Counted from the stretch's first letter, positions 5,681 to 51,124 are shown. The stretch is DNA of 64,000 bases from Patescibacteria group bacterium (GCA_034659915.1 JAYEID010000013.1:74917-138916), one strand, 5' to 3'. Notes: a model not told the origin generated them from the sequence alone. Numbers and translations: made by a program.

Positions 5681-6058
5681 ACTATAAGTATTTTGGAGTT
5701 AGGAGGATAGTTGTAAGAATGGTTGGTTTCGGAAGGGTGTTGGCTCTCACGAACGCAAGGGAGGTACGTCCAATGACGTGCGCCGAGAGAGCTTCTGTTC
5801 GAGGACGAGTTGTGAAACCTAGGTGTTTATGATCTTTATAGATACCAGCTAGATAGGTTTCCGCTCGTCCTTTCTTTTTGTACTTAACCATTTTTGGTGT
5901 GGTTTAAGCCACTTTTGCGTAATATTCATTTCTTGTTCTTTGCGCTTTCTCAATATTATGCTAAAAATGATTGAAGCAGTTTTTTATAAATCCGGGGGGC
6001 TGCGTACTGCAAAAGAGGGGTGTATTTGGAGTGGGGCATATAGTGAAAGGAGAAGGGT

Positions 6059-6558: not shown

Positions 6559-7887
6559 TTAAGAAACCAGCTCGCGCAGTTCCCGGTAAAACCTTTGGAG
6601 ATACTTTTCAGCCTCTTGCCAATGTTTTTCTCTTTCCGTGCTCGAAATTCCTTCTTTTTCAGCCAAATCATGTTCAAAAGTTGCCATTGCTTTCCAATGT
6701 GCAGCTTCCCTTAGTTGGAGTTCCGATTGTTGGTAGAGCTCACCATAAAGTGCACTAAAAGCCTTTTCTAGTTCTAGTTTATTAATACAACCCTCTAGTT
6801 TATCGTGAACTTGCCACCAGGTAATCTCCAGCTCAGCAGCTTTCTGTGGGTCAAAATCTGCTTCCATATTTTCCAGTGCAATTGAGTAGAAGCTTTCCAT
6901 TGCATTTACAGCTAATTCCCAATTCCGTTGGTTGTGTCCTTCCATGACAGCTCTGAACATTGCTTTTGTCATGTTGGTAGCGTTTTCGTTCCCAACATTA
7001 TAAAGTTCTTTAATCCAGTTGATGAAAATTCTCTGCATTTTTTCTATATTATCTTTGTTGTGTGCCTTCCACCAGCTAATTTCCAGCTCGGCAACCTTTT
7101 CGGGCTTAAAGTTTACGTTGGGAACGGATTGGTCTGCCCCGCCAAAACGGCGCCGTCTTCGGCTAAAGTCCAGGACTGCGTTTTTTAATTTTTCCGGTGA
7201 GAAGTCTGGGAAATGATCTCGTTCCCAGTAGATCTCGCTGTAAGCAGCTTGCCAAGATAGAAAACCGCTTAAGCGTTGTTCCCCCGAAGTTCTAATTACC
7301 AAATCAGGATAAGGGTGGGGTTGATCTTGCATATCGAGATAATTTTTGAAACGGTAATAAGGATATTTCCCAGCGTATTTTCCAACATTTTCTTTAATAT
7401 CTTTTGGATCAATTTTCCGTGTTTCTATATCTTTAATTATTTTTTCAACGCTGCGCAGTATTTCATCATGCCCCCCGTAATCCAATCCAATATTTAGAAC
7501 AAAACTTTTGTTGTTTTTTGTTTCTTCTACTGCGTTTTCAATTTTTTTCCTTAGCTGGCTTGGAATTCTATCTTTGCGCCCTAAGTGGTAGATACGCACG
7601 TTATCCTTTTTTGCGTCAGCAAGGTTGTCATCGATGAACTTTTCATATAGTTTCATTAGATAATTTATTTCTTTTTTGGATCTGTTCCAGTTTTCAGTGG
7701 AAAATGCCCAAACTGTGGTAGTGTGGATGTCCCAGTCGCGAATAGTTTGGAAAAGCTTGGGCGCAAGATCAAAACCCCTCCGGTGCCCTTCTAGTGTAGG
7801 CAACCCCCGTGCCCGTGCCCATCTCCTGTTTCCATCCGGAATTATTGCAATATGGCTAGGGAGCTCTGTGTTTGGGGGAAGCTCAAT
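6559..7887 (-). CDS. uppS: undecaprenyl-diphosphate synthase with about 190-aa C-terminal extension; start codon unresolved
   Basis: VWAFSTENWNR, DYGGHDEILRS, RTSGEQRLSGFLSWQAAYSEIYW blocks. Canonical-start ORF is 6559-7803 (TTG), but the essential N-terminal ELPSHIAIIPDGNRRWARARGLP is encoded in-frame upstream (7804-7908) with no ATG/GTG/TTG; the only in-frame candidates are ATT (7885-7887) and ATA (7900-7902). Confidence 0.75.
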   Translation of the reverse strand: MELPPNTELPSHIAIIPDGNRRWARARGLPTLEGHRRGFDLAPKLFQTIRDWDIHTTTVWAFSTENWNRSKKEINYLMKLYEKFIDDNLADAKKDNVRIYHLGRKDRIPSQLRKKIENAVEETKNNKSFVLNIGLDYGGHDEILRSVEKIIKDIETRKIDPKDIKENVGKYAGKYPYYRFKNYLDMQDQPHPYPDLVIRTSGEQRLSGFLSWQAAYSEIYWERDHFPDFSPEKLKNAVLDFSRRRRRFGGADQSVPNVNFKPEKVAELEISWWKAHNKDNIEKMQRIFINWIKELYNVGNENATNMTKAMFRAVMEGHNQRNWELAVNAMESFYSIALENMEADFDPQKAAELEITWWQVHDKLEGCINKLELEKAFSALYGELYQQSELQLREAAHWKAMATFEHDLAEKEGISSTEREKHWQEAEKYLQRFYRELRELVS

Positions 7888-7912
7888 ATCAGTTTTTGGT
7901 ATAGTATCTTAC

Positions 7913-7941
7913 ATTGTAGTCTCAGGCGTTGTTTTTTTCAA
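7913..7941 (-). promoter_or_regulatory. sigma70-type promoter upstream of uppS (TTGAAA-17-TACAAT)
   Basis: Minus strand reads TTGAAAaaaacaacgcctgagacTACAATGTAA; the -10 overlaps an ATG immediately followed by in-frame TAA (7914-7909). Confidence 0.5.
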
Positions 7942-8001
7942 GTTAACGGGGTTTGTGTCTCGGGTCTTTTAGTATAAAGTGTTTTATGTTATCTTTAGCC
8001 T

Positions 8002-9381
8002 ATGTTGGAAAGGACATCAGCTTCCAAAACTGTTAAAAAAGTAGGTGAGGACGTTATTCTTAAAGGTTGGGTAGACAGGCGGCGTGATCACGGTGGCGTG
8101 GCCTTTTTAGATTTACGAGATAGGACAGGAATTGTCCAAGTTGTTTGTACACCTGAACAAATTGATGATTTGCGCGATGAATACGTGGTTGAAATTAGAG
8201 GTGAGGTAAAAGAGCGGCCGGAAAATATGGTTAACCCTGATTTGGAGACGGGCACAGTGGAAGTTAAGGTAGAGAAAATCACTGTGTTATCGGAGTCGAA
8301 GACGCTACCCTTTGATATACACGGAAGCGGATTGAAAATTAATGAAAAGAAGCGTTTAGAGTATCGCTACCTAGATTTGCGTAGACTACGTTTAACAAAA
8401 AATTTACGTTTTCGCAGCAAGGCTGTTCAATTTATTCGCAATTATCTTATGGAGCGTGATTTTGTAGAAATTGAAACTCCCATTCTTTCTAAATCTACAC
8501 CGGAAGGGGCGCGTGACTTTTTGGTTCCTTCTCGGCTACAACCCGGCGAGTTCTACGCACTTCCCCAAAGTCCTCAGCAGTATAAACAGCTCTTGATGGT
8601 GGCTGGCTTTGAGCGCTATTTCCAAATTGCGCGGTGCTTTCGGGATGAGGATCTTCGTGCGGATAGGCAGTTGGAGTTTACTCAGCTGGATCTAGAAATG
8701 TCCTTCTCTACTCAGGAGGAAATTTTGGAGTTGACTGAGGATTTATTTACAAATCTAGTGGAGGAGTTAACCGACAAGAAAATTACAAAGAAGCCGTTTC
8801 CTCGCTTGAAGTACAAAGAGGTAATGAGAAAATACGGGACAGATACTCCTGACTTGCGCAAAGATAAAAGTGATCCTAATGAACTAGCATTTTGCTGGGT
8901 AATAAACTTTCCGCTTTTTGAGAAAAGTGCTGAGGGAGATCTTAGCCCCTCTCACCACCCGTTTACAGCTCCCCGGGAAGAAGATCTAAATTTGTTGGAT
9001 TCAGAGCCAATGAAGGTTCGTTCCTACCAGCACGATTTGGTATTGAACGGTCATGAGGTGGGTGGGGGAAGTATTAGAATTACGGATCCTAAGATCCAAA
9101 CTAAAATTTTTGAAATTTTAGGGCATACTCGCGAAGAGATTGAGGAAAAGTTTGGACACTTACTTAAAGCTTTCGAGTACGGTGTTCCGCCCCATGGTGG
9201 TATTGCTCCTGGCATTGATCGCTTGGTAGCTATTCTTTGCGGGGAGGAAACTATTCGTGAAGTTATGGCTTTTCCCGTTACCTCTTCTGGTGAAACTGCT
9301 GTAATGGATGCTCCTAGTAAAGTTGACAAAGATCAATTACGAGAGCTAGGTATTAAAGTTGTTGAGGATGATAATGACTAG
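8002..9381 (+). CDS. aspS: aspartyl-tRNA synthetase, short form lacking the GAD insertion domain
   Basis: 459 aa class II synthetase; OB-fold N-terminus, QIARCFRDEDLRADRQLEFTQLDLEMSF motif 2, GIDRL motif 3; length matches archaeal/non-discriminating type. Confidence 0.85.
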   Translation: MLERTSASKTVKKVGEDVILKGWVDRRRDHGGVAFLDLRDRTGIVQVVCTPEQIDDLRDEYVVEIRGEVKERPENMVNPDLETGTVEVKVEKITVLSESKTLPFDIHGSGLKINEKKRLEYRYLDLRRLRLTKNLRFRSKAVQFIRNYLMERDFVEIETPILSKSTPEGARDFLVPSRLQPGEFYALPQSPQQYKQLLMVAGFERYFQIARCFRDEDLRADRQLEFTQLDLEMSFSTQEEILELTEDLFTNLVEELTDKKITKKPFPRLKYKEVMRKYGTDTPDLRKDKSDPNELAFCWVINFPLFEKSAEGDLSPSHHPFTAPREEDLNLLDSEPMKVRSYQHDLVLNGHEVGGGSIRITDPKIQTKIFEILGHTREEIEEKFGHLLKAFEYGVPPHGGIAPGIDRLVAILCGEETIREVMAFPVTSSGETAVMDAPSKVDKDQLRELGIKVVEDDND

Positions 9382-11885: not shown

Positions 11886-11906
11886 CCGTTTGTTATAATA
11901 ACTACG

Positions 11907-13421
11907 TTGCTTATGCCAAATGATAATTCTTTTGAAAATGTAAGAGTGCGCAGTGCTCCTTCTCCCACTGGCCGACCTCATATTGGTACTGCTTATAACG
12001 CTCTTTTTAATTATGTTTTTGCCCGTAAACACGATGGTAAATTTATTCTTCGTATTGAGGATACAGATCGGTCTCGCTATGATGCTGATTCTGAGCGAGA
12101 GATTATAGATGCTCTTACTTGGTTAGGTTTGGAGCCAAATGAATCTCCTAAAAAAGGGGGAGAGTACGGACCTTACCGGCAGTCGGAACGCTTGGATATC
12201 TATAAAAAATATGTCGAGCAGCTTTTAGATAAAGGTGCAGCTTATTACTGCTTTTGTTCGGAAGAACGCCTAGAGAGAATTAGAGAAAGAGCTAGGCGGG
12301 AAGGTAAGCCTCCCATGTATGATGGACATTGTCGAAGTATTAGCAGGAAAGATGCTGAAAAGAGAATTCAGGAGGGAGAAGAGTATGTGGTTCGCTTAAA
12401 AGTCCCCAAGGAAGGGACTACTAAGTTTCACGACTTGATACGTGGTGAAATTGAGGTTGAAAATCAAGTTATTGATGATCAAGTTCTTTTAAAATCTGAC
12501 GGTTTTCCTACCTATCATTTAGCTAATGTGGTAGATGATCATTTAATGGAGATTAGTCATATTATTCGGGGTGAGGAGTGGCTTTCTTCTGTTCCCAAAC
12601 ACATTTTACTCTACACTGCTTTTGATTGGGCTCCTCCGGTTTATGCACATACTCCGCTGCTTCGCGGTGAGGGCGGTGCTAAACTGGGAAAGCGACACGG
12701 CGCACTTCCTATTTTTGAATACAAGAAAATGGGTATTCTTCCGGAAGCACTTTTAAATTATTTGGCGCTTTTGGGCTGGACTCATCCTCAGGAGAAAGAG
12801 TTTTTTGGTTTGAAAGAAATGATTGATAAGTTTCAACTTGAAGATATGGATGCAACTGCTCCTATCTATGATCCGGATAAGTTAAAATGGTTAAATGGTA
12901 AGTGGATCCGCGCGCTTAGTGTTGAGGAGCTTGCGGAAAGACTTCGGAGTGTTTTTGCAAGAGAAGCGGAAGCCGCCGGGGAAACTTCCGGGGTTTCTGC
13001 AGATCCAACCCCGGAGGTTAAAGAGGCGGCCCAGGAACGATTTTCCGAAATCGTCTCCCTTGTTCAGGACCGCATGGAAACCCTCTGTGATTTTGAGGAA
13101 CTGGCCCGGTTCTTCTTTGAAGCTCCGGAGGTAGACAAAGAACCTCTTGTGGAGCAGGCTCATGGAGATGAAGAAGAAGCAAAAGCTATCTTGGAAGCAG
13201 CAGCAAAGATTATTGAAGAGACAGAATTGGAACACGATGCTTTGGAACAAGCTTTTCGGTCTAAGGCAAAGGAAGAAGGTTGGGGAATGCGGGCAATTTG
13301 TATGACTACCCGAGTAGCAATAACTGGGAAAACAGTCTCCCCCCCACTTTTTGATTGTGTCGCGATCCTCGGCCGCGAAGAAACCCTTACCCGCCTTAAC
13401 AAATCTTTGGAATTACTGTAA
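11907..13421 (+). CDS. gltX: glutamyl-tRNA synthetase
   Basis: VRVRSAPSPTGRPHIGTAYNALFN (HIGH region), WLGLEPNE, KLGKRHG (KMSKS-like); 504 aa. Confidence 0.9.
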   Translation: MLMPNDNSFENVRVRSAPSPTGRPHIGTAYNALFNYVFARKHDGKFILRIEDTDRSRYDADSEREIIDALTWLGLEPNESPKKGGEYGPYRQSERLDIYKKYVEQLLDKGAAYYCFCSEERLERIRERARREGKPPMYDGHCRSISRKDAEKRIQEGEEYVVRLKVPKEGTTKFHDLIRGEIEVENQVIDDQVLLKSDGFPTYHLANVVDDHLMEISHIIRGEEWLSSVPKHILLYTAFDWAPPVYAHTPLLRGEGGAKLGKRHGALPIFEYKKMGILPEALLNYLALLGWTHPQEKEFFGLKEMIDKFQLEDMDATAPIYDPDKLKWLNGKWIRALSVEELAERLRSVFAREAEAAGETSGVSADPTPEVKEAAQERFSEIVSLVQDRMETLCDFEELARFFFEAPEVDKEPLVEQAHGDEEEAKAILEAAAKIIEETELEHDALEQAFRSKAKEEGWGMRAICMTTRVAITGKTVSPPLFDCVAILGREETLTRLNKSLELL

Positions 13422-14349: not shown

Positions 14350-17300
14350 ATGGTTAACCCTGTCCGTGATTCTAGTTCAATTGAAAAAATTTCCCAGTGG
14401 ATTGATATTTTTCTTCTTTTTGTGTTGGTTATTGCCAACTTGTTATTTCCCCTCTTTGGTCTTTCTGCGCATCTTGTAAGTTTGGTCCGGTTGTTGTTTT
14501 TGCTTTCCTTAGTTCTATTTTTTATATTTGTACGGTTGCCGCTTCTTTTCGTTGAATCGGTTGTGGGTATGCTTCGTTCCCACAAAGATAGAAAGAAGAT
14601 TTGGAGGAGTAGAAAAAATTTTCTTATTAAAAACCTTGTTTTTATTTTGGTTTTTCTTTTTGTGTTGGATTCAGTGGGTGCAAATTCTCTCCACGGCGTA
14701 ATTGGTAGAGAGTTGTTAGGGAGGAAAGGTGATCGTGGTGGAGCAGCTGATAATGGAGGGGAAGCCTACGGGTTGGTAAGGTCCAGCGAAAAAGAAATGT
14801 TTGTTCTGCGGGCAAAGCGTAAAGACTTTAAGTCTGAAGAGGACGTTACCTTTAAGGTAAGTTTTACCGATGCTTTGCCCTCCGCACCGGAAGAAAATGA
14901 GGCGTCAGGTTCTTCCTCCCAGCCCTCCTCGGCAACAACCTCTGCCACTCCCGAAACAGATTCTCCCTCTTCTGTAGATCAATCTGGTTCGGAAGAACCA
15001 ACCACCCAAGATTCTACTCCGGAGGGTACAGAAAGTGCTACTCCGGAGGCAACAATAAGCGCCCAGCCTAGTAATCAGGGGTTGTTGGGAAAAGTATTAG
15101 CGCTTTTGGAAAAATATAATATTTTTGGTTCTGTTAAAGCTCAAAGCAAAGAACCGGATATTGATGTGAAAATTTTTGATGTGGAAGGTGAAGAGACTCA
15201 CTTTCCTATTTCTGTTGAGGCTGATGAATCAGGTAACTTTGAGATAGAGGTAAGTAAGGGTAGAGCGTTTAGACCCGGGAAGTATGAGCTTAAAGTTACC
15301 TTGGTAGATCCGGAAAGTGGTGAAGAGCTTGATTCTATAGAACAAGATTTTACCTGGGGTGTTTTGGCTGTTAATACCAACAAGTCCATTTACCTGCCCC
15401 GGGAAAAAGCAAAATTGCAGATGGCTGTTTTGGATGAAGAAGGGATGATGGAATGTAACGCTAAGCTGCGCTTGGAAATCCAAAATCCGAAATCCGAAAT
15501 TCAAAACCTCTCGACGGAAGAGGGAAGCATTACCGTGAACCCTGAATGCAAGTTGCATGACTTTACTCTGGTGCCGGATTACGAGGCAGAATACCAAGTT
15601 GCCGATTCTGGTGTTTATGAGATGAAACTAACTGCGGAAACAGAAAACGGCACTTATACCATTACCGATTCTTTTGAAGTGCGCAACGAAGTCCCTTTTG
15701 ATGTGGAGAGGGAAACAGCAACCCGTATTTATCCTCCCGAGTCTTACCCCGTTACTTTTTCTATTAAGGTTAACCAAGATTTTACCGGCGTAATTGAGGA
15801 GCGTGTTCCTGCAAGTTTTGAGGTGGAATGTCCCCCTCTTTTTGATGTGGATTCGGGAACTCGTAGCAACAGTTGCCAGATCAAGGAGAAGGACGGCGTC
15901 AAAACAATATCTTGGTCTGTAAGTTGGGCAGAAGGGCAAAGGACAACCTTGTACTATCGTTTCAAGACACCTCTCATATCGCCGCAATTTTACCTTCTGG
16001 GACCTTTAACCTTCCGTAGCCTTGGCGAAGGAGGTCCTTCCACTACTGTTTTTGAAAAAAGCGAGGATGAGCTTGCACCGACGAGCTTCGAAGAAGCGAG
16101 GAGGTGGCAGCTGGCTATTGACGATACGGAAGGCGCCAACAGCCCAAGCAGCGCAGCTGAAGATACATCTGTAGGTGGTTATTCTTGGTCGGGATATACC
16201 AATGTTTATTCTAGTAATGATTCCTATGCTGAGGTTACTTTGGGTAAAGGATATATAAGTTATTATATTAAAGCTACCGGCTTCGGTTTTTCCCTTTCTA
16301 ATTGCGAGTCCATTGATGGGATTTATGTAGAGGTGGAGCGTAAATCTAACGATGCGGCTGATATGGAAGATAATTCAGTACGCCTGGTTAACGGTAGTGG
16401 TACTATTGTTGGCGATGACAAAGCAATAGCTGGTGATTGGCCAACTTCGGATACTTACCAAGGTTACGGTGGTTCTACCGATACGTGGAACGCCAGCTTG
16501 ACTTGTAGTGATGTTACTAATTCTAATTTTGGAGTTGTCTTTTCAGCGCAGAACACTGTATCTACTAAACCACGCGATATTACTGCCTCCGTTGACCACA
16601 TTCGGGTGACCGTTTATTATACTGCTGCCCCAGCTCTTGAACAGAGCCATTACCGTTGGCGCGACGACAGCTACGGTTTAAACACTGACAACGGTTGGCA
16701 GGCAAATGAAGATAACGAGTACAATGGCTTGCCGACAAATACTACCGCCCGTTTACGAATGGAAATTGACAATACCGGTGACGCGGAGGCGAGCAGTTAT
16801 CAGTACCAACTGGAATATGCTGCCCAAAGTGGGGACACTTGCGGCGGCGAAAGTTACACCGCCGTACCGGTTACTGCTTCCACAGAACCTTTTGAGATGG
16901 TTACTTCTAGCCAATACACGGACGGTGACGCTATTACTTCGGGATTTCTGACAGGTTCCGGCACTTGGGCTGATGGTGAGGGTGTGGCAGACCCCTCTAA
17001 TAAAACAGCAAGCCATAGCTTAGCTTATGGTGACTACACAGAATTTGAATATGCAATTCAGGCAACTAGTGATGCAGGCAGTGGACAGACCTACTGTTTC
17101 CGGTTAACAAATGATGGCTCGATTGAGAATTTTACTTATACTAGATACGCTGAAGCGACCATTCAAGGAGTTAGCGGTTCTTTGGGCAAATCTGCAGACG
17201 GATGGGCGGGGGCAATTCCAGTTTATATGGATGTTATTGGTTATGATTCCAGTTATTACGCCCGGGCTAAAGTGGATACGCCTGCTGCGGAAACCTACTA

Positions 17301-19977
17301 CTTTGATATGACCTGGGATAGCGGCAACAGCCGTTTTGAAGGGACAATTTATCCAGGCTCTTATTATTGCAACGGTTGTGCTGATCCAAATACCGGAACT
17401 TTTACGGTTACTGTTCAGATCGATGACGATTCCGGGTTTGGGTCAATTAATGACTCAGACAGTACGGGTAGTTTTGATACTTATATTACCCGCCGGAAAA
17501 GTTCTTTGGACACCTCTGAAAACTATACCGATATCAAACCGGTTTGGAACACCGACCATTGGGATATTGAGGTGGCTGACTTTGCCCTTTATTGCTCTTC
17601 CAGCCAAACCAATGCGGTTATTGCCGTCCCTTTTCATCCCACTACAGCTAGTATTTCTAACATTGCTGTTAGCTATGATGGTACAGCTGTGTCCCAGGGT
17701 AGTGCGGAATCAACCACTGACGCTTGGTGGTGGGACAGCGATTACCACACCTTGTTTTTAATGTTTGGTTCCTGCAGCACGACCATTGTGGATGTGGACA
17801 TTAGCTTTGATTCGGATACGGATCTTTGGGCAACGCGGTTCGACCGGGTGCAAACAGCTGACATGGGCAACCGCGAATTTTATAACGGTCTTTTTATTGG
17901 TAACCAATACTGGACAACCAGCGTGTATGGCGGCGGTCACGAAGGCGCCGGTGAGCAGGCGGAATCGCGGGCAAAACCCAGCGGGGGAGATGAGTTAACT
18001 GTTGATTGTATGGAACGTGTGGGTGTTTGGGCTGACGATGACGGGGACCCCAACACCATCGATGACCTGAACTGCGACGACTCCGGTTATTATGAATGTA
18101 ACGTTAAGTGGGCGCAGGACGAGTGGGATGATTGGCCCCTTTCGGAAGATAACGATTCGATTGTGGTGGAAACCAACGAGGACCAGACCGCAAGCACCGG
18201 TTGGCGGCAGTATTTGGATAATTCTATTAGTGTTGAACGGATCCTAACTTTTTATTCCGGCAAAATATATATTGAAAACAATTACACTATAACCAATAAC
18301 GATTCCAGTGCACATGATCTCGACCTTGTTCATGAAAGAGAACAATGGCTTGCTGGAGACTGCGCTATAAACGATAGAGGTCGTTATTATAGTGATACTT
18401 CGGATCGAACTATGGACACGAGGGTAGATATGTCTACGTTTTCTAATCCTTGGCTGACGAGTTACGACAATTACGACACCGGTTATTATGCAAGCATGGG
18501 ATTTATTTTTGAGGAAGGTGCGGAAGCGGATTACGGTATTTTTACTGACCATGCCTTTATTACTAACACTTCGGCTGAGTGGCCGGTGGTAATTGGTTCA
18601 GAAGGGCACACTGAGGCAGCTAATACCGGTTTTGAATTAAGTAACAATTCTGTTGCGGCAGGGAACAGTGTGGTTTTAAATTATTGGCAAACCCTGTATA
18701 TAGGCAGTTCTTGGGATGATGTTGCGTCTGCCTTGGATGATGCTTGTGCAGAGCTTAATGATGCTAACACCGCACCCAACAGCCCCACTTCTCTGACGCA
18801 AAAGAAGACCGACGACACAGTTCTTTCCACGGGCGACTGGACCAACGAATCTTCGGTAAAATTCACGGCAACTGTGGATGACCCCGACGATTCGGACACA
18901 CTCTACCTCTGTGTAGAAAAAGACCCCACCGGCACTGCTTTTTCTGATACCGAAGATCAGTGCGGGGAGGGGGTTTCCTACTCCGGAACAGCGGTGGAAG
19001 CAACTGTTACTATTTCTTCGCAGACCGACGATACTGAGTATCACTGGCAGGCACGGGTTAAGGACGAAGCGGGAGAATATTCATCCTGGGTTTCTTACGG
19101 GGGGAACGCGGATCCTAGTGATACAGATTACGCTATTGACACCACAGCCCCCACCGGAGGGACAGTTTACGACGGAACGGAGGCGGGGGTGGATAAGGAT
19201 TTTAACGATGAATCTCTTTCCCAGCTTTCTGCCAACTGGAGCGGGTTTGATGCTAGTGTATCCGGTTTGGATTATTACGAATATTCAATTGGTACTACCC
19301 AAGGAGGAATCGATGTTGTGGGCTGGACCAATAACGGCACATCAACTTCGGTAACTGAACAAGATTTAACTTTGCAAACCTCACAACCTTATTACTTTAA
19401 TGTGCGGGCAGTGGATAATGCAGGCAGTACCCAGTCTCCCGCAATTTCCTCCGACGGCCAGCTGGTGAGTCCCAGTATTTCTTTTAGCGTTAGCCCTTCT
19501 ACAGTTTCCTTTGATGCTTTGAACGCTTCCAACAGTTATACCGATACGGAAACCGTTACTTTGGAAACTTCCACCAACGCCTATAATGGTTATGTTGTTC
19601 GTGGTTTTGCCACCGATTATTTGCGTTCCGCTTCCGGCAACGAGACAGTTCCCGATTTTGACGGGGGAACTTACGAGGAGCCGGACGGCTGGCTTACTAG
19701 TGACCGCGGGTTTGGTTACCATTCTTCGGATGAATCTATTCAAGGAAGTAATATTTTTAATAGCGACCCTTGCCCCGGTGGCAACAGCCCGCCCTGTTAT
19801 GCGCCTTTTTCCCAAACGGCTCCCGGTGATATTGTTGCCGACCACACCGCCAATGTTACCGGCAGTCCTATTTCCAGCGAACAGTTTACGCTTACCTATA
19901 AGGTGAAAACCGACAGTATCCAGGCTTCGTCAACTTACATTACAACTATTATTTACACTATAACTGCTCAGTATTAA
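14350..19977 (+). CDS. giant (1875 aa) membrane-anchored Ser/Thr/Asp-rich cell-surface protein
   Basis: Several N-terminal TM helices, a Ser/Thr/Pro/Glu-rich linker (aa 180-240) and a long beta-rich, low-Cys extracellular region. The last roughly 160 aa (SISFSVSPSTVSFDA...SSTYITTIIYTITAQY) are homologous to the C-terminus of the 21149-22186 protein. Confidence 0.7.
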   Translation: MVNPVRDSSSIEKISQWIDIFLLFVLVIANLLFPLFGLSAHLVSLVRLLFLLSLVLFFIFVRLPLLFVESVVGMLRSHKDRKKIWRSRKNFLIKNLVFILVFLFVLDSVGANSLHGVIGRELLGRKGDRGGAADNGGEAYGLVRSSEKEMFVLRAKRKDFKSEEDVTFKVSFTDALPSAPEENEASGSSSQPSSATTSATPETDSPSSVDQSGSEEPTTQDSTPEGTESATPEATISAQPSNQGLLGKVLALLEKYNIFGSVKAQSKEPDIDVKIFDVEGEETHFPISVEADESGNFEIEVSKGRAFRPGKYELKVTLVDPESGEELDSIEQDFTWGVLAVNTNKSIYLPREKAKLQMAVLDEEGMMECNAKLRLEIQNPKSEIQNLSTEEGSITVNPECKLHDFTLVPDYEAEYQVADSGVYEMKLTAETENGTYTITDSFEVRNEVPFDVERETATRIYPPESYPVTFSIKVNQDFTGVIEERVPASFEVECPPLFDVDSGTRSNSCQIKEKDGVKTISWSVSWAEGQRTTLYYRFKTPLISPQFYLLGPLTFRSLGEGGPSTTVFEKSEDELAPTSFEEARRWQLAIDDTEGANSPSSAAEDTSVGGYSWSGYTNVYSSNDSYAEVTLGKGYISYYIKATGFGFSLSNCESIDGIYVEVERKSNDAADMEDNSVRLVNGSGTIVGDDKAIAGDWPTSDTYQGYGGSTDTWNASLTCSDVTNSNFGVVFSAQNTVSTKPRDITASVDHIRVTVYYTAAPALEQSHYRWRDDSYGLNTDNGWQANEDNEYNGLPTNTTARLRMEIDNTGDAEASSYQYQLEYAAQSGDTCGGESYTAVPVTASTEPFEMVTSSQYTDGDAITSGFLTGSGTWADGEGVADPSNKTASHSLAYGDYTEFEYAIQATSDAGSGQTYCFRLTNDGSIENFTYTRYAEATIQGVSGSLGKSADGWAGAIPVYMDVIGYDSSYYARAKVDTPAAETYYFDMTWDSGNSRFEGTIYPGSYYCNGCADPNTGTFTVTVQIDDDSGFGSINDSDSTGSFDTYITRRKSSLDTSENYTDIKPVWNTDHWDIEVADFALYCSSSQTNAVIAVPFHPTTASISNIAVSYDGTAVSQGSAESTTDAWWWDSDYHTLFLMFGSCSTTIVDVDISFDSDTDLWATRFDRVQTADMGNREFYNGLFIGNQYWTTSVYGGGHEGAGEQAESRAKPSGGDELTVDCMERVGVWADDDGDPNTIDDLNCDDSGYYECNVKWAQDEWDDWPLSEDNDSIVVETNEDQTASTGWRQYLDNSISVERILTFYSGKIYIENNYTITNNDSSAHDLDLVHEREQWLAGDCAINDRGRYYSDTSDRTMDTRVDMSTFSNPWLTSYDNYDTGYYASMGFIFEEGAEADYGIFTDHAFITNTSAEWPVVIGSEGHTEAANTGFELSNNSVAAGNSVVLNYWQTLYIGSSWDDVASALDDACAELNDANTAPNSPTSLTQKKTDDTVLSTGDWTNESSVKFTATVDDPDDSDTLYLCVEKDPTGTAFSDTEDQCGEGVSYSGTAVEATVTISSQTDDTEYHWQARVKDEAGEYSSWVSYGGNADPSDTDYAIDTTAPTGGTVYDGTEAGVDKDFNDESLSQLSANWSGFDASVSGLDYYEYSIGTTQGGIDVVGWTNNGTSTSVTEQDLTLQTSQPYYFNVRAVDNAGSTQSPAISSDGQLVSPSISFSVSPSTVSFDALNASNSYTDTETVTLETSTNAYNGYVVRGFATDYLRSASGNETVPDFDGGTYEEPDGWLTSDRGFGYHSSDESIQGSNIFNSDPCPGGNSPPCYAPFSQTAPGDIVADHTANVTGSPISSEQFTLTYKVKTDSIQASSTYITTIIYTITAQY

Positions 19978-28413: not shown

Positions 28414-28468
28414 TTTTTTAATCCTTTTGGTAATTGACATTAACTTCCAAGTTCTCTATCATTGAGTT

Positions 28469-28972
28469 ATGGCAGAAGAAAGAGATTCTGCGCAACAACC
28501 GCAGAAGTCAGATCAAAAAGAAGGATCCTCCTCTTCCAGCTTACGGGCTAATAAAAAATTTCGGCTTGGTGTTATTGCAATACTTTTGATTATTGTAGCT
28601 GTTCTCTTCTTTGTTTGGGAAAAGGCACGGATTATCTTGGTAGTAGCTTTTGTAACTCTACTTGCAGCTTTTGGGCTTGAAGCTACTGAACACGATTGGG
28701 ATTTGGGGAAGTTAATAGAAACTGGTTCTTTCCAAGAATCAAAAGTTGCTCGAGACGCGTCGGGAAATATCCTATTTGACAAGGAAGGCAACATAACAAC
28801 CGATTCCTCTGTAGGAAAACCTGCCGATGATTACAACTGCTCAGACTTTGAAACCCAACAGGAAGCACAAAGGTTTTTTGAGAGGCTTGGTGGAACAGAA
28901 AATGATGTCCACCGCCTTGATGGAGATAATGATGGTATTGCCTGTGAAGCTCTTCCAAGTGAGCGAGACTAA
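28469..28972 (+). CDS. membrane-anchored Excalibur calcium-binding domain protein
   Basis: N-terminal TM; C-terminal [22 protein letters not shown]...[11 protein letters not shown] matches the Excalibur DxDxDGxxCE motif. Confidence 0.65.
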
Positions 28973-31881: not shown

Positions 31882-33774
31882 ATGCGCAAACTTTTAGTAG
31901 GCTTTTGTATTGCAATTGTTTCAGTTTTAATTTTCCCCTCTAACCTTTTCGCTAAGGATTATTCTATTGGTGCAGTCGATATAAATGTTGATATTTACCA
32001 AGACCGTTCTTTTGAGATAACTGAATCCCGTGTATATAACTTTGACGGGAGCTTTTCTTGGGCAGATTTGTGGATCCCAACTAGGGTCACTCGCAACGGG
32101 AACAGTTATGACGTTTCTATTTCTAACTTTGAAGTTCGGGATGAGACTGGAAATTTGCTTGAAACAGAGACAAGTCAAAGAGAGGGTAAATTTTATGCTA
32201 AGTGGTTTTATTCTGCCCAAAATGAGAACAAAACTTTTATCTGGACCTACCATGTAGAAGGTGATGCAATTAAGAAATATGAGGATATTGCAGAGTTTTA
32301 TTGGCGGGTAGTTGGGGATGAATGGGAAAAATCAGCTGGACCTGTGTCTGTTCTTGTTCGGTTGCCTTCGGGGGCAGAGGAAGAAGAAATTCAAGTTTAT
32401 GGTCATTTGCCAACAGATGCGCTCTTAGATATTGGTGGTCCCAAGAAAACTGACTCAGAAATTATTGACTCGCAAACTGTTCGGTTTACTGTTCCTAGGC
32501 TGCCTGCAGAAACCTATTTGGAGGTGCGAGTTCTCTTTCCCCCACAGCTTGTTTCTGGTCCAATCTCGGGAAAAAAATCTTTGGAAGAAATAAAAGTAGA
32601 GGAGAAGCAATTTGTAGAACAAACAGTTGCTACTTCTAAAAGAAGGCAGCTGGTTGCTAAGGCAGTTCTGGGGTATGTGTTTATTGTTATTCCTCTTTCT
32701 ATTATTGTTTGGCTTTACTTTTATTGGCAGGCTTGGAAAAGGAAGGGCAGAGAGTACCAGTTTCCAGATATTCCCAAATATGTGCGGGAGTTACCTTCGG
32801 AGTTACCGCCAGCTATGGTTGATGTTCTTTTGAGGCAGGGCGGCAAGCCCAGTACTGATGCTTTTGTAGCTACTATTTTTGACTTAGCGCGAAGAGGGTA
32901 TATCTCTTTGAAAGATGAAACAGAGATAAAAGCCGGTCTTCTACAAACTAGAAAAAAGATAAAGACAAATCTGATCCGCCAAGAAAAGGACATTAACGAG
33001 CTACGTGACTTTGAACAGATGATTTTAGAAATTCTTTTTAAGACTATTCCTGAGGGAAAGGATGGTAGCTTGTTTGGTGTTGTTGGTGCTGCTTTGGGTC
33101 AGGGTCAGGGTGAAGATCAAGCTGAATCTTCGTCGGAAGATGTTATACAGTTTGGCGATGTTGAAAGCTATATTAAAAATCACCAGCAGAGTTTCCGCAG
33201 GTGGTTTGAGCAGTGGCAAAAGGAGGTTGTGAATGAGGCAGAGGTTGGCGGTTATTTGGAAAAAGAGGGGAAAGAGCTTGCTAAGAAATTTTGGGTTATG
33301 TCAGCTTTGCTTTTATTTTTTGGTTCTCCAGTTATTCTTTTGGGAATTTTTCTTATTCCTAATCTCAAGCGGTGGAAAAAGGAGTGGGCAAGGGAAGCAG
33401 CGGAGTGGGTAGCTTTTCGTAAATTTTTGGATGACTTTTCTAGTTTTGAAGAGATTCCTCCCGAAGCTTATAAACTGTGGGAGTATTATTTGGTTTACGG
33501 TGTTCTTTTTGGGAATGCTGAGGCGATTTTGAATGCTTTGCCCGTGATTTTTGAAAACCCCCGCGCTGCGCAGCCTACTTGGTACTTAACAACTTCTGGT
33601 GGAAAAATTTCGGGAGCATCTCTTTCTTCAATTTCTTCTATGACTAATAGTATTGCCAATTTAAACTCTTCAATGCGTTCTGTTTCAGCCTCTTCTATGT
33701 CCTCTGGTAGTGGGGGTGGTTTTTCTGGTGGTGGGGGAGGGGGTGGTGGGGGTGGTGGAGGCGGTGCTGGCTAA
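31882..33774 (+). CDS. DUF2207-like membrane protein with C-terminal poly-Gly tail
   Basis: Signal peptide, roughly 230-aa extracytoplasmic beta domain, TM helices at about 260 and 470, C-terminal SGSGGGFSGGGGGGGGGGGGGAG as seen in DUF2207 proteins. Confidence 0.5.
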   Translation: MRKLLVGFCIAIVSVLIFPSNLFAKDYSIGAVDINVDIYQDRSFEITESRVYNFDGSFSWADLWIPTRVTRNGNSYDVSISNFEVRDETGNLLETETSQREGKFYAKWFYSAQNENKTFIWTYHVEGDAIKKYEDIAEFYWRVVGDEWEKSAGPVSVLVRLPSGAEEEEIQVYGHLPTDALLDIGGPKKTDSEIIDSQTVRFTVPRLPAETYLEVRVLFPPQLVSGPISGKKSLEEIKVEEKQFVEQTVATSKRRQLVAKAVLGYVFIVIPLSIIVWLYFYWQAWKRKGREYQFPDIPKYVRELPSELPPAMVDVLLRQGGKPSTDAFVATIFDLARRGYISLKDETEIKAGLLQTRKKIKTNLIRQEKDINELRDFEQMILEILFKTIPEGKDGSLFGVVGAALGQGQGEDQAESSSEDVIQFGDVESYIKNHQQSFRRWFEQWQKEVVNEAEVGGYLEKEGKELAKKFWVMSALLLFFGSPVILLGIFLIPNLKRWKKEWAREAAEWVAFRKFLDDFSSFEEIPPEAYKLWEYYLVYGVLFGNAEAILNALPVIFENPRAAQPTWYLTTSGGKISGASLSSISSMTNSIANLNSSMRSVSASSMSSGSGGGFSGGGGGGGGGGGGGAG

Positions 33775-35138
33775 TTACTAGATACCTCAATAAAACTTCC
33801 ACTAAGGATTTTTGCGCTTGGACCCATTTGCTTCTTGTCTAAGAGAACGGTGCTTTTTGCAGGGCGGTTGGTAGCTTTTAAGTAATCTTTTATAGTTGAT
33901 CCCTCAGCTACAGGAACTACTCCTAGTTCTTTATCAATAACATATATATCTGGCTTTAAAACTTTTTCTGCAAGCTCACCCAAAAATTGCTCACTTTCTT
34001 CTTTCATAAAGTTTTCTTGCCATTCAATAAGTTTCTGTGTCCAGTACCGAATTTTTTCTACTTTTTCAGAATCTGTTTGTGCATGGGTTAGATGGATTGC
34101 TAAGCCAAAATCTGCACGTTGGTGCATGTTCTTGTCTCGAATTTGTATCTCAAAAATGGAGCCTGAGTTTTTGTCAAAAACGCGGGTATGCAAAGCTTCG
34201 TAACCGTTGGGTTTTGGTTGAGCAATAAAGTTACTAATTCCCACATGAGGTACGGGTTTGTAGTTTTCGTGAATAATTCCCAAAGCAGTGTAGCAATCTC
34301 TTTTTTTGGGAACTACTACACAGGTTATTACTAAGTCGTATACTTCGTCTAAATTTTTATTAATTTCTTTGCGGTGAAGTTTAGCAAATAGACTGTACCA
34401 ATTTTTTCTGCGAGTTTCAGTTTTAATAAGTTTTAGCGGTTCTTTTTTAAAAATATGCTCTAATTCAAAGTTTATCGCTTTAATTATCTCTTCCCTTTTA
34501 TCCATTGCTTGTTTTGCATACTCTGTTACCCATTGAAAGTCTTTTGGTCTTTGGGTTTTAAAACACAGTTCACGTAGGTCACCACTTACCTCGCTCATTC
34601 CCATCTTGTATGCTAGGGGAGCGTATACAGATCTTGTTTCTTCCGAAAGCTTGCTTTGGGCTTGTGGAGAAAGGTATTGGATAGTTTTCATATTGTGCAA
34701 TCTGTCTGCTAATTTTATAACTACTACCCGAAGATCTTTAGACATGGCTAAAAACATTTTCCTCAGGTTATTGGCGAACTTTTCTTTCTTATTTCTATGA
34801 AAATCAACCTCGCTTACTTTTGTTACACCATCTACCAGGTTAGTGATTTGGGATCCAAACTCCTTCCTGATATTACTGAGGGTAAGGGGTGTATCTTCCA
34901 CTACGTCATGAAGCAACCCTGCGCAAATGCTTTCGGTGTCTTGTTCCCATTTATTAAGGTTTTTTGCTGTTTCAAGAGGGTGAATAAAGTAAGGTTCGCC
35001 AGATTTTCTTAAGTCGCCCTGGTGTGCTTTCTGCGAAAAATCTAAAGCCTTTTTTATTTTTCGCAAATTAGGGTTTTGGGGGTTGTTTTTTAGTTCTTTT
35101 AGAAAAATGTTTCTTGCAGTGTCGAGATTATATTCCAT
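33771..35138 (-). CDS. short bifunctional-type RelA/SpoT homologue (HD hydrolase + synthetase + TGS)
   Basis: HD block HPLETAKNL...AGLLHDVVEDT, synthetase block YKPVPHVGISNFIAQPKPNGYEALHTRVF...EIQIRDKNMHQRADFG, TGS-like C-terminus; 455 aa, no ACT domain. Confidence 0.75.
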   Translation of the reverse strand: MEYNLDTARNIFLKELKNNPQNPNLRKIKKALDFSQKAHQGDLRKSGEPYFIHPLETAKNLNKWEQDTESICAGLLHDVVEDTPLTLSNIRKEFGSQITNLVDGVTKVSEVDFHRNKKEKFANNLRKMFLAMSKDLRVVVIKLADRLHNMKTIQYLSPQAQSKLSEETRSVYAPLAYKMGMSEVSGDLRELCFKTQRPKDFQWVTEYAKQAMDKREEIIKAINFELEHIFKKEPLKLIKTETRRKNWYSLFAKLHRKEINKNLDEVYDLVITCVVVPKKRDCYTALGIIHENYKPVPHVGISNFIAQPKPNGYEALHTRVFDKNSGSIFEIQIRDKNMHQRADFGLAIHLTHAQTDSEKVEKIRYWTQKLIEWQENFMKEESEQFLGELAEKVLKPDIYVIDKELGVVPVAEGSTIKDYLKATNRPAKSTVLLDKKQMGPSAKILSGSFIEVSSN

Positions 35139-35221
35139 AGTTTGTGCTATTTTCTAATTCCTCCCTGTTTTTGTCAATAATTCTCTTAAATTACTAGTAA
35201 TGTTTATGGTACCATGCCTAT

Positions 35222-37006
35222 ATGATTTTAAAGAAGTTGAAAAAAAGTCTGAAGTCATTTTTACAAATTTTTCTTACGCGGGATTTTTGGATTTATTTTT
35301 CTAGTTCCTTGCTATTAGCTTTTTCAATAATTTTCTTTGCGTATCATTTAGCTTACGCTAGGAAAACTATTCCTGGAGTGCGAATGTTGGGTTTGGATTT
35401 AAGTAATAAGAGTGAACGCCAAACACTATCTCTACTAAAACCGCGTTTGGTGGAACTGGAATCTGCTAATTTGCAATTTTCTTATCAGGATAAGGTATTT
35501 TCTAAGAGTATGTATGAATGGGGTGTTCGTTATGATGCAACCTCTTCTGCCCAAAAAGCATTTGCTTTTGGAAGAAGTGGTCATGTTTTTAAGACAACTA
35601 AGGATAAGTTTCAGGCTGGTACGGCGGGAGTTTCACTTCTACCAGTAGCTTCCATTGACGAACAATCTTTTTCCGCTACTTTGTCTGAAGTTGCTGCTGA
35701 TGTTGGCAAGCCAAAGGAGAATCCCTATTTTGCACTGGTTGAGGGTTCTTTGGAAGTTGTACCTGGTGAGAGTGGTTACGAGATTGATGAGAATAGCTTC
35801 CAAGAACTGATCTTGCGGGCGGCGCAGGAGCTTGACTTTTCTCAAAAAGAATTACCAATAGAAGAAGTGGAGCCAGACTACACTAAAGCAGATCTGGAAA
35901 ATTTAGAGGTTGAGGTAGCGGAACTGTTGGTTTCCTCGCCCAAGCTTACGTTTGGATCTCGCACTTGGACCCTGTCTGAGCAAGAAATTCTTAAGCTTTT
36001 GGATTTCGAAGTAGCACCTGAAAATCCAAACAAAATACAAATTACTACTAATGAGGAGGGGCTTAGTTCTTTTGTTTCCTCCTTAGCAGCCTCCATAAAC
36101 CAACCAATGCGCGGCGGTACTTTTGAGCTTCAGGATGGGCGTGTTATTGATTTTGCTTTACCCCAGCCAGGGTATCACTTGAAAGAAGAAGAGGCAAAAC
36201 AAGTAGTTTCGGAAGTTGTTCTTGATCTCGAGAAAAGCGAAGTTGAATTGCCGGTGGAAGTTAAGGATGTACAGGCTAATGCAAATCAGTATGGAATTCG
36301 TTCTTTATTAGGAACAGGATCTTCCAATTTTAGCGGTTCTAGTTTGGGTAGAATTCATAATATTGACCTTGCCTCGTCCCGGCTGGATGGTATTTTGATT
36401 CCTCCTGGCGAAACTTTTTCTTTCAATGAGACGTTGGGTGACGTAAGCTCAGAAACCGGATACAAGACCTCCTATGTTATAAAGGATGGGCGTACTATTT
36501 TAGGGGTGGGTGGTGGAGTTTGTCAGGTTTCAACTACTATGTTCCGGGCAGCTCTAAATGCGGGGTTGCCAATTGTGGAGCGCGCAGCACACGCCTACCG
36601 AGTTCACTATTACGAGCAGGATAAGGGACCGGGGTTTGATGCTACTGTGTATTCCCCCTCGCCAGATGTTAAGTTTGAAAATGATACCCCAGCTCATGTG
36701 TTAATCAAACGTTATTACAACCCATCTACCTCTACCTTGCAGTTTTCTTTCTATGGTACTTCTGATGGGCGTACTGTTAATATTGTGGGTCCCATAATTC
36801 ATTCTCAGACCCCTCCCCCGGAGCCAGAGTATATTGAAGATGAATCACTAGAACCGGGAGAAACAAAGCAGGTTGATTGGGCAGCTTGGGGTGCTAGGGT
36901 TACAGTGAAAAGAAAAGTGACCCGGGGTGGGGAAGTTTTGCATGAAGATAATTTTTATAGCAGTTACCAACCTTGGCGAGCTGTGTATTTAGTAGGGAAG
37001 GAATGA
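35222..37006 (+). CDS. VanW-family protein
   Basis: N-terminal TM, then SGYEIDE... and the VanW core GVGGGVCQVSTTMFRAALNAGLPIVERAAHAYRVHYY. Confidence 0.7.
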   Translation: MILKKLKKSLKSFLQIFLTRDFWIYFSSSLLLAFSIIFFAYHLAYARKTIPGVRMLGLDLSNKSERQTLSLLKPRLVELESANLQFSYQDKVFSKSMYEWGVRYDATSSAQKAFAFGRSGHVFKTTKDKFQAGTAGVSLLPVASIDEQSFSATLSEVAADVGKPKENPYFALVEGSLEVVPGESGYEIDENSFQELILRAAQELDFSQKELPIEEVEPDYTKADLENLEVEVAELLVSSPKLTFGSRTWTLSEQEILKLLDFEVAPENPNKIQITTNEEGLSSFVSSLAASINQPMRGGTFELQDGRVIDFALPQPGYHLKEEEAKQVVSEVVLDLEKSEVELPVEVKDVQANANQYGIRSLLGTGSSNFSGSSLGRIHNIDLASSRLDGILIPPGETFSFNETLGDVSSETGYKTSYVIKDGRTILGVGGGVCQVSTTMFRAALNAGLPIVERAAHAYRVHYYEQDKGPGFDATVYSPSPDVKFENDTPAHVLIKRYYNPSTSTLQFSFYGTSDGRTVNIVGPIIHSQTPPPEPEYIEDESLEPGETKQVDWAAWGARVTVKRKVTRGGEVLHEDNFYSSYQPWRAVYLVGKE

Positions 37007-37090: not shown

Positions 37091-38554
37091 CTAGTTACCT
37101 CTTTTTAGCGCCTTTTTAATCTTACTCTTCGCTTCGTTGGTCTTAGCGCAATTTAACCAATCAGGTGAGGGTCCTTTACGGCTTTTATCGGTGAGGATTT
37201 CTACTACTTGTCCGGTTTGCAGTTTGGAATCTACCGCAATTAATTTTCCATCTGCCTTTGCTCCAGTGCAGCTGTTTCCGAGATCAGAGTGTATCTTGTA
37301 GGCAAAATCAATAGGAGTTGCTCCTTGAGGCAAGTCTAAAACATCTCCTTTGGGTGTGAGTACAAAGACCCTATCTGTATAAACATTTATTTTAAGTGCT
37401 TCTTCGAATTCCTTATTTCCTCGTGTTTTTTCTTTCCATTTAACTAAGTCTTTTAACCAGGATGTGTATTCCTTTGGTGCTCTTAATTGGCTTCCTTTTG
37501 TTCTTCCTAGTTCTTTATAAAAGGCGTGTGAGGCGGGACCGTATTCGTTGTATTCGTGCATTTTCCACGTACGGATTTGGAATTCGGCGATTCTGTTTTC
37601 CTCACAAAACACAGTGGTGTGAAGAGATTGGTATCCATTTGGTTTGGGATGGGCGATATAATCGCTAAACCTTTCCCCCGGTTCCCAAAAATTGTATACA
37701 ATATCCAAAGTTTTATAGCACTCATCAGTTGTGTTTATAAGGATTCGAAAAGCTTGGACATCGTGCAATCTTTTCAGGTATTCCCGGCTTGTTTCTCCTG
37801 CTTGTTTCTCGCTCTGCATTTTTCTATAAATGCTGTAAAAGTGTTTAGGACGTCCGTAAATTTCTGCGTTGATTCCCTGCTTTCTCAATTCTTTTCTTAT
37901 CTTTTTGCGCACCTTTTGAATATATTCGTTGCGGCCTTCTCTGGTTTCTTCTAGGAAGTTTTGAATTTCGGTGTGCGCTTTGTGGTTAAGGTACTTAAAA
38001 GCCCAGTCTTCCAACTGCCATTTGTAATAGTAAACGCCCAGGCGTTCAGCAATTGGCGCGTATATATCAAGAGCTTTTTGGGCTGTTTCTTCGCGTAGTT
38101 CTTCCGGTAAGCTTTCTATTGTTTTTAAGCTGTGTACTTTTTCTGCCAGTCGGATGAGCATTACGCGGATATCTTTGACTGTTGCCAAAAGAAGTTTTCT
38201 AAAATTTTCGGTTTGGGTCCAGCCGCCTGTTTTGGTTTTTACTTTTTTAATTACTGAAACCCCGTCAACAAGTTCGGCTACCTCTTTCCCAAAGTTTTTT
38301 TGTAGTGATTCTTTGGTTGTTTTTTCGTGTTCAATTGTGTCATGGAGAAGTCCCGCAGCAATGGCTGTACTCTCCATTTTTATATCTGCGAGAAGGTGGG
38401 CAACCTCCAGGCAGTGTTCAATTAACGGTTTCCCGCTTAAACGTTCTTCCCCTTCGTGGGCTTTTTGTGCATATTTGTAGGCTTTTTCAACTAGCCCAAA
38501 ATCCGCATTGGGGTTATATTTCTTAATTTTGTTTTTCAGTTTGGTAATGCTCAT
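37091..38554 (-). CDS. second short RelA/SpoT homologue (HD + synthetase + TGS)
   Basis: AAGLLHDTIEH HD motif, YIAHPKPNGYQSLHTTVF...EFQIRTWKMHEYNEYG synthetase, TGS block VFVLTPKGDVLDLPQGATPIDFAYKIHSDLG; 487 aa. Confidence 0.75.
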   Translation of the reverse strand: MSITKLKNKIKKYNPNADFGLVEKAYKYAQKAHEGEERLSGKPLIEHCLEVAHLLADIKMESTAIAAGLLHDTIEHEKTTKESLQKNFGKEVAELVDGVSVIKKVKTKTGGWTQTENFRKLLLATVKDIRVMLIRLAEKVHSLKTIESLPEELREETAQKALDIYAPIAERLGVYYYKWQLEDWAFKYLNHKAHTEIQNFLEETREGRNEYIQKVRKKIRKELRKQGINAEIYGRPKHFYSIYRKMQSEKQAGETSREYLKRLHDVQAFRILINTTDECYKTLDIVYNFWEPGERFSDYIAHPKPNGYQSLHTTVFCEENRIAEFQIRTWKMHEYNEYGPASHAFYKELGRTKGSQLRAPKEYTSWLKDLVKWKEKTRGNKEFEEALKINVYTDRVFVLTPKGDVLDLPQGATPIDFAYKIHSDLGNSCTGAKADGKLIAVDSKLQTGQVVEILTDKSRKGPSPDWLNCAKTNEAKSKIKKALKRGN

Positions 38555-46577: not shown

Positions 46578-46616
46578 GCGTTGTCTCTCCCCTTTGCTTA
46601 GTGTTATACTAACTCC

Positions 46617-51096: not shown

Positions 51097-51124
51097 TTTT
51101 TTGGTGTGCTACTATGGCAGTTAG

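Follow-up and report, generated by a model that had tools for sequence, protein, structure and literature searches.

The closest described systems to the uppS gene reported here are bacterial genes with near-cognate start codons, mRNAs that are leaderless or carry very short leaders, and the leaderless mRNAs of mammalian mitochondria. AUU is the proven natural start codon of infC, an AUG-to-AUA mutant of T4 rIIB loses about 85% of its translation (leaving about 15%), and AUA in another construct retains 7.5% (PMC5499595). Initiation from AUA in Escherichia coli reporters amounts to 1–2% of that from AUG, with a range of 0.02–3% (bioRxiv 10.1101/063800), and a natural ATG>ATA SNP in rpoS of E. 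coli O104:H4 is reported to lead to reduced RpoS (PMC12864459). For leaderless mRNAs, a Caulobacter reporter gave drastically lower expression with all of the near-cognate codons tested, AUA included, and short leaders lowered reporter expression further (PMC8459731).

The literature searched contained no description of leaderless translation or of start-codon stringency in CPR bacteria, and leaderless translation in Patescibacteria appeared there only as an incidental mention. For many of their lipids, CPR bacteria are believed to rely on hosts, and cells that make peptidoglycan normally cannot do without UppS (undecaprenyl diphosphate synthase). Mitochondria decode AUA as methionine, using a modified tRNA. 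Here, we describe a uppS gene from an uncultured Patescibacteria group (CPR) bacterium of Woesebacteria type, in which ATA occupies the position where the relatives have their ATG start codon. The gene lies in a 64,000-nucleotide stretch of DNA, which was analyzed as a whole and is referred to as the window; all positions are counted along it.

The uppS reading frame and its missing canonical start

The features of the uppS locus and of the divergent aspS start are as follows.

6559–7902, minus strand: uppS coding sequence, 447 codons plus a TAA stop (frame translation, PF01255 and TIGR00055 matches, dN/dS)
6562–7140, minus strand: C-terminal extension of UppS, about 190 residues, typical of Woesebacteria-type homologues (homologue coverage)
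7801–7803, minus strand: TTG, the first canonical start codon, where a mechanical ORF call begins; not the real start (33 codons inside the conserved protein)
7816–7836, minus strand: DGNRRWA catalytic and diphosphate-binding motif, 5′ of the first canonical start (translation, alignment)
7885–7887, minus strand: ATT, alternative in-frame near-cognate start at residue 6, which would leave the catalytic domain complete
7900–7902, minus strand: ATA, almost certainly the position of the uppS start codon, where a G-to-A transition at 7900 has altered an ancestral ATG (codon-for-codon alignment with the ATG of relatives)
7905–7907, minus strand: predicted transcription start zone, 6–8 nt past the −10 hexamer, with purines at 7907 and 7905 (sigma-70 promoter geometry)
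7909–7914, minus strand: ATG-TAA pair overlapping or abutting the −10 hexamer, coincidental and not part of the gene (comparison with relatives)
7913–7918, minus strand: predicted −10 hexamer TACAAT, 17 nt past the −35 hexamer (same hexamer and same 10-nt spacing in L002, L004 and L006)
7936–7941, minus strand: TTGAAA, the predicted −35 hexamer for uppS (conserved as TTGAAA or TTGCAA in L002, L004 and L006)
7987–8004, plus strand: start of the divergent aspS gene, an extended −10-like TGTTATCTT, 6 nt, then ATG, of leaderless geometry (same in L004 and L006)

Following an in-frame TAA, the minus strand reads GAT ACT ATA (7902–7900) CCA AAA ACT GAT ATT (7887–7885) GAG and continues to GAT GGA AAC AGG AGA TGG GCA, encoding DGNRRWA (7836–7816), which is followed by the TTG at 7803–7801. 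A scan for candidate starts found no ATG, GTG or TTG between the TAA (7911–7909) and the catalytic Asp, confirming the central claim of a preliminary description of this DNA, that uppS is without a canonical start. That description had also placed the conserved N-terminus, with its DGN(R/G)RWA block, upstream of the TTG at 7803, as the translation and the profile positions of PF01255 and TIGR00055 bear out, and had located the promoter, ATG, TAA, ATA, ATT and TTG correctly on the minus strand.

The protein spans the whole of the PF01255 profile (1–219 of 219; 235.7 bits, cutoff 27) and of the TIGR00055 equivalog profile (1–228 of 228; 226.8 bits, cutoff 109.55), and by these full matches above cutoff it is assigned as UppS, which would be predicted to build C55 (undecaprenyl) diphosphate from FPP and IPP. 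The first position of PF01255 corresponds to residue 23 of the stop-to-stop ORF, in which the TTG is residue 35, 12 residues later, and the first position of TIGR00055 corresponds to residue 14 counting from the ATA. Because both domains begin upstream, the ORF that starts at TTG 7803 is N-terminally truncated and would be without the catalytic Asp; this residue is absent from the mechanical TTG-started ORF of 414 residues and also from the Logan gene call of 365 residues (P0003). All seven residues of the motif (D23, G24, N25, R26, R27, W28 and A29) are invariant in an alignment of 22 sequences. Solved UPPS structures align with the window protein from residue 7 onward, and in a solved structure IIMDGNGRWA and RRHRRFGG are the counterparts of its DGNRRWA and RRRRRFGG.

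Homologues that share the C-terminal extension number in the hundreds and are of Woesebacteria type, 420–448 residues long with coverage of 98–100%; the names carried by homologues of the window UppS are Woesebacteria, Microgenomates or Patescibacteria. The extension, which has no match in Pfam, NCBIfam or PDB sequences, holds two similar segments, …AELEISWWKAHN… and …AELEITWWQVHD….

Two reassignments of the genetic code were considered and rejected: TAA as a sense codon, as it ends 30 of the 56 window ORFs (TAG ends 19 and TGA 7), and AUA as a methionine codon, as the ATA at 7845–7843 encodes the invariant Ile of HIAIIPDGN. The code is standard, because TAA terminates and AUA within genes is read as Ile in the usual way. 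The G+C content of the window is 42.5%.

Relatives have ATG at the position of the ATA

Comparison with orthologous proteins locates the start. The closest homologue (P0001; 92% identity, 447 residues) has the N-terminus MPKTNIELPSNTELPDHIAIIPDGNRRWA, P0013 (79% identity) begins MPKNDIKLPQ, and P0002 (80% identity) includes ...NNAMVKNKIELPQ, while the window frame at the same region reads (D T) I PKTDIELPPNTELPSHIAIIPDGNRRWA. Orthologues at these three levels of identity start with MPK... or MVK..., and their ATG falls at the position of the window's ATA. The same correspondence is found in the DNA. The window and L001 read TTGAAA-17-TACAAT GTAAGATACT ATA CCA, and L002/L003 read TTGAAA-17-TACAAT GTAAGATACT ATG CCA; L004/L005 and L006/L007 read TTGCAA-17-TACAAT AAACAACGCA followed by ATG GTT and ATG CCT, respectively. 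In L002/L003, L004/L005 and L006/L007 the ATG is exactly 10 nt 3′ of the −10 hexamer; at this same place the window carries ATA. On this alignment, the start codon of the window differs from the ATG of its relatives by a single third-base G-to-A transition at 7900. The ATA at 7902–7900 had been put forward as one candidate start in the preliminary description, together with an alignment to UppS from relatives as the means of checking it, and that alignment now places the ancestral ATG at this very codon.

The wider survey combined a scan of a genome collection, which yielded 80 uppS loci, with L001–L007. A canonical start, usually ATG, was found 5′ of the catalytic Asp in all 78 other loci with a DGN[RG]RW motif except L001, which belongs to the strain of the window; in many homologues only 11–14 residues precede the catalytic Asp. 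Among the surveyed loci only a single strain has the ATA allele, so nothing indicates that selection has maintained it, and DNA-pattern scans of JGI metagenome contigs gave no further strains. Within the window, uppS alone among about 55 ORFs has conserved sequence 5′ of its first canonical start, and the Pfam domains of every other gene start within the called protein. Because the other genes show no such upstream conservation, the ATA of uppS appears to be an isolated mutation and not a habit of the genome. As a separate observation on annotation, the public call for L004/L005 (3001–4557; P0002, 518 residues) is probably 71 codons too long, extending into the aspS–uppS intergenic region, and the conserved promoter and orthologous ATG of these loci fall within the called P0002 coding sequence.

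The base itself is consistently called. The window is matched at 100% identity over 4,158 nt by a Logan assembly of run SRR26901925 (L001/L088) and over 3,994 nt by one of a second run, SRR26901928 (L089); ATA stands in both assemblies. Base-call support is thus made up of three assemblies, the MAG and two from Logan, from two runs, and as all of them give ATA a random sequencing or assembly error is unlikely. We are highly confident that ATA 7902–7900 is both a real base call and the true orthologous start position.

The deposited protein MEA2020519.1 (P0121, 447 residues) corresponds to the window UppS translated from the ATA, its first residue given as Met. It was tied to the MAG through the two adjacent accessions: the AspRS of the window is identical to MEA2020520.1 and the product of the gene after it to MEA2020521.1, both from a MAG contig of 184,270 bp. 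MEA2020519.1 begins at the ATA, and therefore the deposited annotation already uses a non-canonical start. Gene callers restricted to ATG, GTG and TTG mis-annotate uppS, and the NCBI record has the correct 447-residue protein.

A conserved promoter, a short predicted leader and an ATG-TAA pair

The uppS promoter site scores 10 of 12 in a promoter scan. Sites of this quality are no more frequent in the region than expected by chance (3 found, 2.8 expected), and this site is conserved in position and sequence among relatives. With 10 nt between the end of the promoter and the start codon, the predicted leader is only about 3–5 nt long. No Shine-Dalgarno sequence lies upstream of the window uppS, the predicted fold leaves the initial 23 nt of this mRNA free of pairing, and no compensatory-looking promoter or leader difference distinguishes the window from L002.

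The ATG at 7914–7912 overlaps the final two bases of the −10 hexamer, and the TAA at 7911–7909 follows it in frame; the pair is simply TACAAT followed by GTAA. L002/L003 (92% identical) have the same TACAATGTAA and yet start at the ATG 10 nt past the −10 hexamer, whereas L004 and L006 read TACAATAAAC, with no ATG at that place. By this comparison the pair at 7914–7909 is coincidental and upstream of the predicted transcription start. Because L002/L003 use the downstream ATG and L004/L006 are without the upstream one, ATG 7914 was never the start. The preliminary description had drawn attention to an ATG-TAA embedded within the promoter: the overlap with the −10 hexamer stands, but the significance attached to it does not, since L002 keeps the pair alongside a normal ATG and L004/L006 dispense with this ATG.

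Leaderless-type geometry in uppS and elsewhere in the window

Close spacing between promoter and start codon extends well beyond this locus. A match to TATAAT of at least 5 out of 6 lies 5–11 nt 5′ of the start in 20 of 28 Microgenomates-type uppS loci, compared with 2 of 100 internal ATGs, and an extended TGn element is present in many of the surveyed loci. Across Microgenomates, the strong −10 precedes uppS by 6–11 nt: seven loci have a spacer of 6 nt, five have one of 7 nt, and the clade of the window has 10 nt; because of this 10-nt spacing, a strictly leaderless uppS transcript is not predicted for the clade. GGAG, GAGG and AGGA are absent from the 16 nt 5′ of the uppS start in all 28 loci.

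The divergent aspS start has a similar design, reading TGATACATT-6-ATG in L004 and TGGTAAATT-6-ATG in L006. Across the window, a −10-like hexamer lies 5–11 nt 5′ of 17 of 54 starts versus 14% of internal ATGs, and an SD-like motif precedes only 10 of the 54. On these sequence patterns, leaderless or near-leaderless mRNAs appear to be common in the genome. Individual starts that lack an SD and are preceded, at a distance of 6–9 nt, by a −10-like hexamer, often with extended TGn, were seen at aspS (7987–8004), 28469 (28440–28471) and 35222 (35200–35224), with the same SD-less design at 46617 (46595–46619; a second class II D/K/N-type aaRS) and at serS, 51125 (51100–51127); gltX (11888–11915) reads TGTTATAAT-7-TTG. 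uppS and several of its neighbours in Microgenomates thus have a leaderless promoter geometry, a feature for which the literature searched holds no CPR description.

Selective constraint and pathway context

Between the window and L002, uppS has a dN/dS of 0.116. With L004 as the outgroup, the window branch carries 8 amino-acid changes (M1I included) versus 14 on the L002 branch, and there are no frameshifts or internal stops across the 447 codons. No relaxed constraint or excess of amino-acid change was seen on the window uppS branch by these comparisons, in which dN/dS is blind to a recent loss. The divergence of the two adjacent genes differs: dS between the window and L002 is 0.36 for uppS (6559–7902) and about 1.5 for aspS (8002–9381), and this much lower divergence of uppS points to a recent exchange of the segment between these lineages, by recombination or transfer.

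BacA/UppP and a PAP2 phosphatase are encoded in the window (53139–54474), and a D-Ala-D-Ala carboxypeptidase gene adjoins aspS. The presence of these three genes indicates that undecaprenyl-phosphate metabolism (C55-PP recycling) is in use. Neither a second cis-prenyltransferase (Prenyltransf domain) nor infC was found within the 64-kb window.

Probable initiation at the AUA, and alternatives

The reading that we favor, with a probability of roughly 0.6, is that AUA 7902–7900 acts as a near-cognate start codon for uppS on an mRNA with a very short leader, at a reduced rate. A genuine G-to-A transition has changed the start codon from ATG to ATA, with the gene transcribed from its conserved, sigma-70-type promoter (TTGAAA-17-TACAAT); transcription is predicted to start at 7905–7907 and would leave a leader of about 3–5 nt with no Shine-Dalgarno sequence. 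Near-cognate pairing of the initiator fMet-tRNA with AUA would then start translation, to yield the same 447-residue UppS as in relatives at a much lower initiation rate. The N-terminal peptide predicted for this protein is (f)MPKTDIELPPNTELPSHIAIIPDGNR, versus M-ELPPN... if translation began at the ATT. Because AUG matters far more to leaderless and very-short-leader mRNAs than to SD-led ones, initiation could be very poor; the level of ATA-started UppS is probably low and, by analogy with the measured systems, UppS expression may be very low.

A sequencing or assembly error, with G as the true base at 7900 and an ordinary ATG start, is suggested by the nature of the difference (one base in a metagenome-assembled genome, judged from assemblies) but would have to be shared by the MAG contig and the Logan assemblies of SRR26901925 and SRR26901928, which all have ATA and are otherwise 100% identical; as there are no signs of errors in other window genes either, we regard it as very improbable. 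Still harder to credit is a functional ATG 7914, whether as the original start followed by a nonsense mutation or by readthrough of the TAA, or as a start-stop mini-ORF feeding re-initiation at the near-cognate codon downstream. The ATG-TAA is truly present, in frame and 6 nt 5′ of the ATA, but the ATG overlaps a conserved −10 hexamer and comes before the predicted start of transcription, it has no Shine-Dalgarno sequence, L002 combines the pair with a normal downstream ATG while L004 and L006 have no ATG there, and readthrough is countered by TAA being the commonest terminator in the window (30 of 56 ORFs) and not a sense codon. Two explanations offered in the preliminary description fall with it: an error that turned ATG-xAA into ATG-TAA, because ATG 7914 is not the start in relatives and the change is instead in the third base of the ATA codon, and a recent nonsense mutation after ATG 7914, because L002 shares the ATG-TAA while having the downstream ATG, and L004 and L006 are without that ATG.

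Recent loss of the start codon, in which the ATG-to-ATA change silences uppS or leaves a severe hypomorph and the intact ORF reflects recency only, is possible although clearly less probable than initiation at the AUA; a small population might carry such an allele because it is only mildly deleterious or has hitch-hiked, or else a paralogue or a host might provide the function. It accords with the dominance of AUG in leaderless-type initiation, where near-cognates are drastically weaker (PMC8459731), with an allele unique to one strain among the surveyed loci, with the lack of any visible compensatory change, and with the host dependence of CPR bacteria for many lipids. Against it stand the normally essential role of UppS where there is peptidoglycan, together with the BacA/UppP, PAP2 and D-Ala-D-Ala carboxypeptidase genes of the window; 447 codons free of frameshifts and stops, with fewer amino-acid changes than on the sister branch; an ATA that is the consensus in two runs; and the absence of a second Prenyltransf domain within 64 kb. 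Translation from the downstream ATT at 7887–7885 would give a protein 5 residues shorter with the whole catalytic domain kept. This codon is in frame, 15 nt 3′ of the ATA in an unstructured region, the TIGR00055 profile begins only at residue 14, many homologues have just 11–14 residues before the catalytic Asp, and AUU is the natural infC start (PMC5499595); however, it is more distant from the 5′ end, with no Shine-Dalgarno sequence to place the ribosome, and it is the same Ile codon that relatives have downstream of their ATG, where nothing marks it as a start. We therefore consider it unlikely.

This locus is a natural test case: an essential enzyme for the cell-wall lipid carrier is encoded behind an AUA on an SD-less, nearly leaderless mRNA, which is almost untranslatable in model bacteria. 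Should UppS be produced, CPR bacteria initiate more permissively than the models; otherwise, the strain lives on very little or no UppS. A stronger proposal, which we consider unlikely, is that leaderless-type mRNAs of this CPR lineage, like those of mitochondria, accept non-AUG start codons unusually readily, such that a 5′-proximal AUA gives adequate expression of an essential gene; were it true, it would imply that start-codon proofreading, by IF3 or through the initiator tRNA, is altered in these bacteria, whose ribosomes are reduced.

Other features of the window

An intergenic stretch of about 150 nt on the plus strand (5725–5890) is 93–97% identical to L002 4470–4631, with flanking genes only about 80% identical. 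Its predicted structure is strong (−62.5 kcal/mol, z = −3.8), a long hairpin with a U-run after it. Rfam gives no match even at E ≤ 1, and the stretch may be an undescribed small RNA. The element adjoins tRNA-Pro in L002 and is about 570 nt from tRNA-Pro in the window. Two nearby genes of the RelA/SpoT family (HD plus RelA_SpoT) lie on the minus strand at 33774–35138 and 37094–38554, with a TGS domain in only one of them, and two GreA/GreB paralogues stand in tandem with a 1-nt overlap at 44267–45213 (plus strand). An ORF of 1,875 residues at 14350–19974 (plus strand) has no Pfam match at E ≤ 0.001; 3′ of it are several ORFs that either have no family match or have weak Ig-like, EF-hand or dockerin matches, and the ORFs from 14350–19974 onward may form a cluster of large surface proteins.

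Comparison with known systems

As an enzyme, the window protein resembles described UppS (TIGR00055/PF01255) in its full catalytic domain, its DGNRRWA motif and the RRRRFGG C-terminal to it, and departs from it in the additional C-terminal region of about 190 residues, which is common to Woesebacteria homologues. In its start codon, it resembles the near-cognate cases of infC (AUU), T4 rIIB (AUA) and rpoS (ATG>ATA) in the single third-base change, the proposed reading by initiator tRNA at reduced efficiency and the otherwise unchanged protein (PMC5499595; bioRxiv 10.1101/063800; PMC12864459). These known cases are SD-led, in model bacteria and measured, whereas the window uppS is SD-less with a predicted leader of 3–5 nt, belongs to an uncultured CPR bacterium and is known from sequence alone; unlike that of infC, moreover, its non-AUG codon is not conserved among relatives.

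The leaderless and very-short-leader mRNAs of Caulobacter, Mycobacterium, Deinococcus and haloarchaea share with uppS a −10 hexamer that adjoins the start, the lack of an SD and an unstructured 5′ end, and the 6–7-nt spacing of most Microgenomates uppS loci fits transcription from the A of the ATG (PMC8459731, PMC4007540). The clade of the window differs in its 10-nt spacing, for which a strictly leaderless transcript is not predicted, and the window uppS differs in the absence of a 5′-proximal AUG or GUG signal, its codon being AUA, which is very poorly translated in known bacterial leaderless systems. Mammalian mitochondria, with AUA and AUU starts on leaderless mRNAs, provide a parallel for the combination of a leaderless-type mRNA with AUA (PMC11775629), but in the window AUA is Ile, as in HIAIIPDGN, and the code is standard. 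Set among these systems, the uppS ATA is a further case of the transition of a start codon to a near-cognate triplet, an uncommon but known type of event; what is somewhat unusual is its setting, in an essential gene, on an SD-less and almost leaderless mRNA, in a CPR bacterium.
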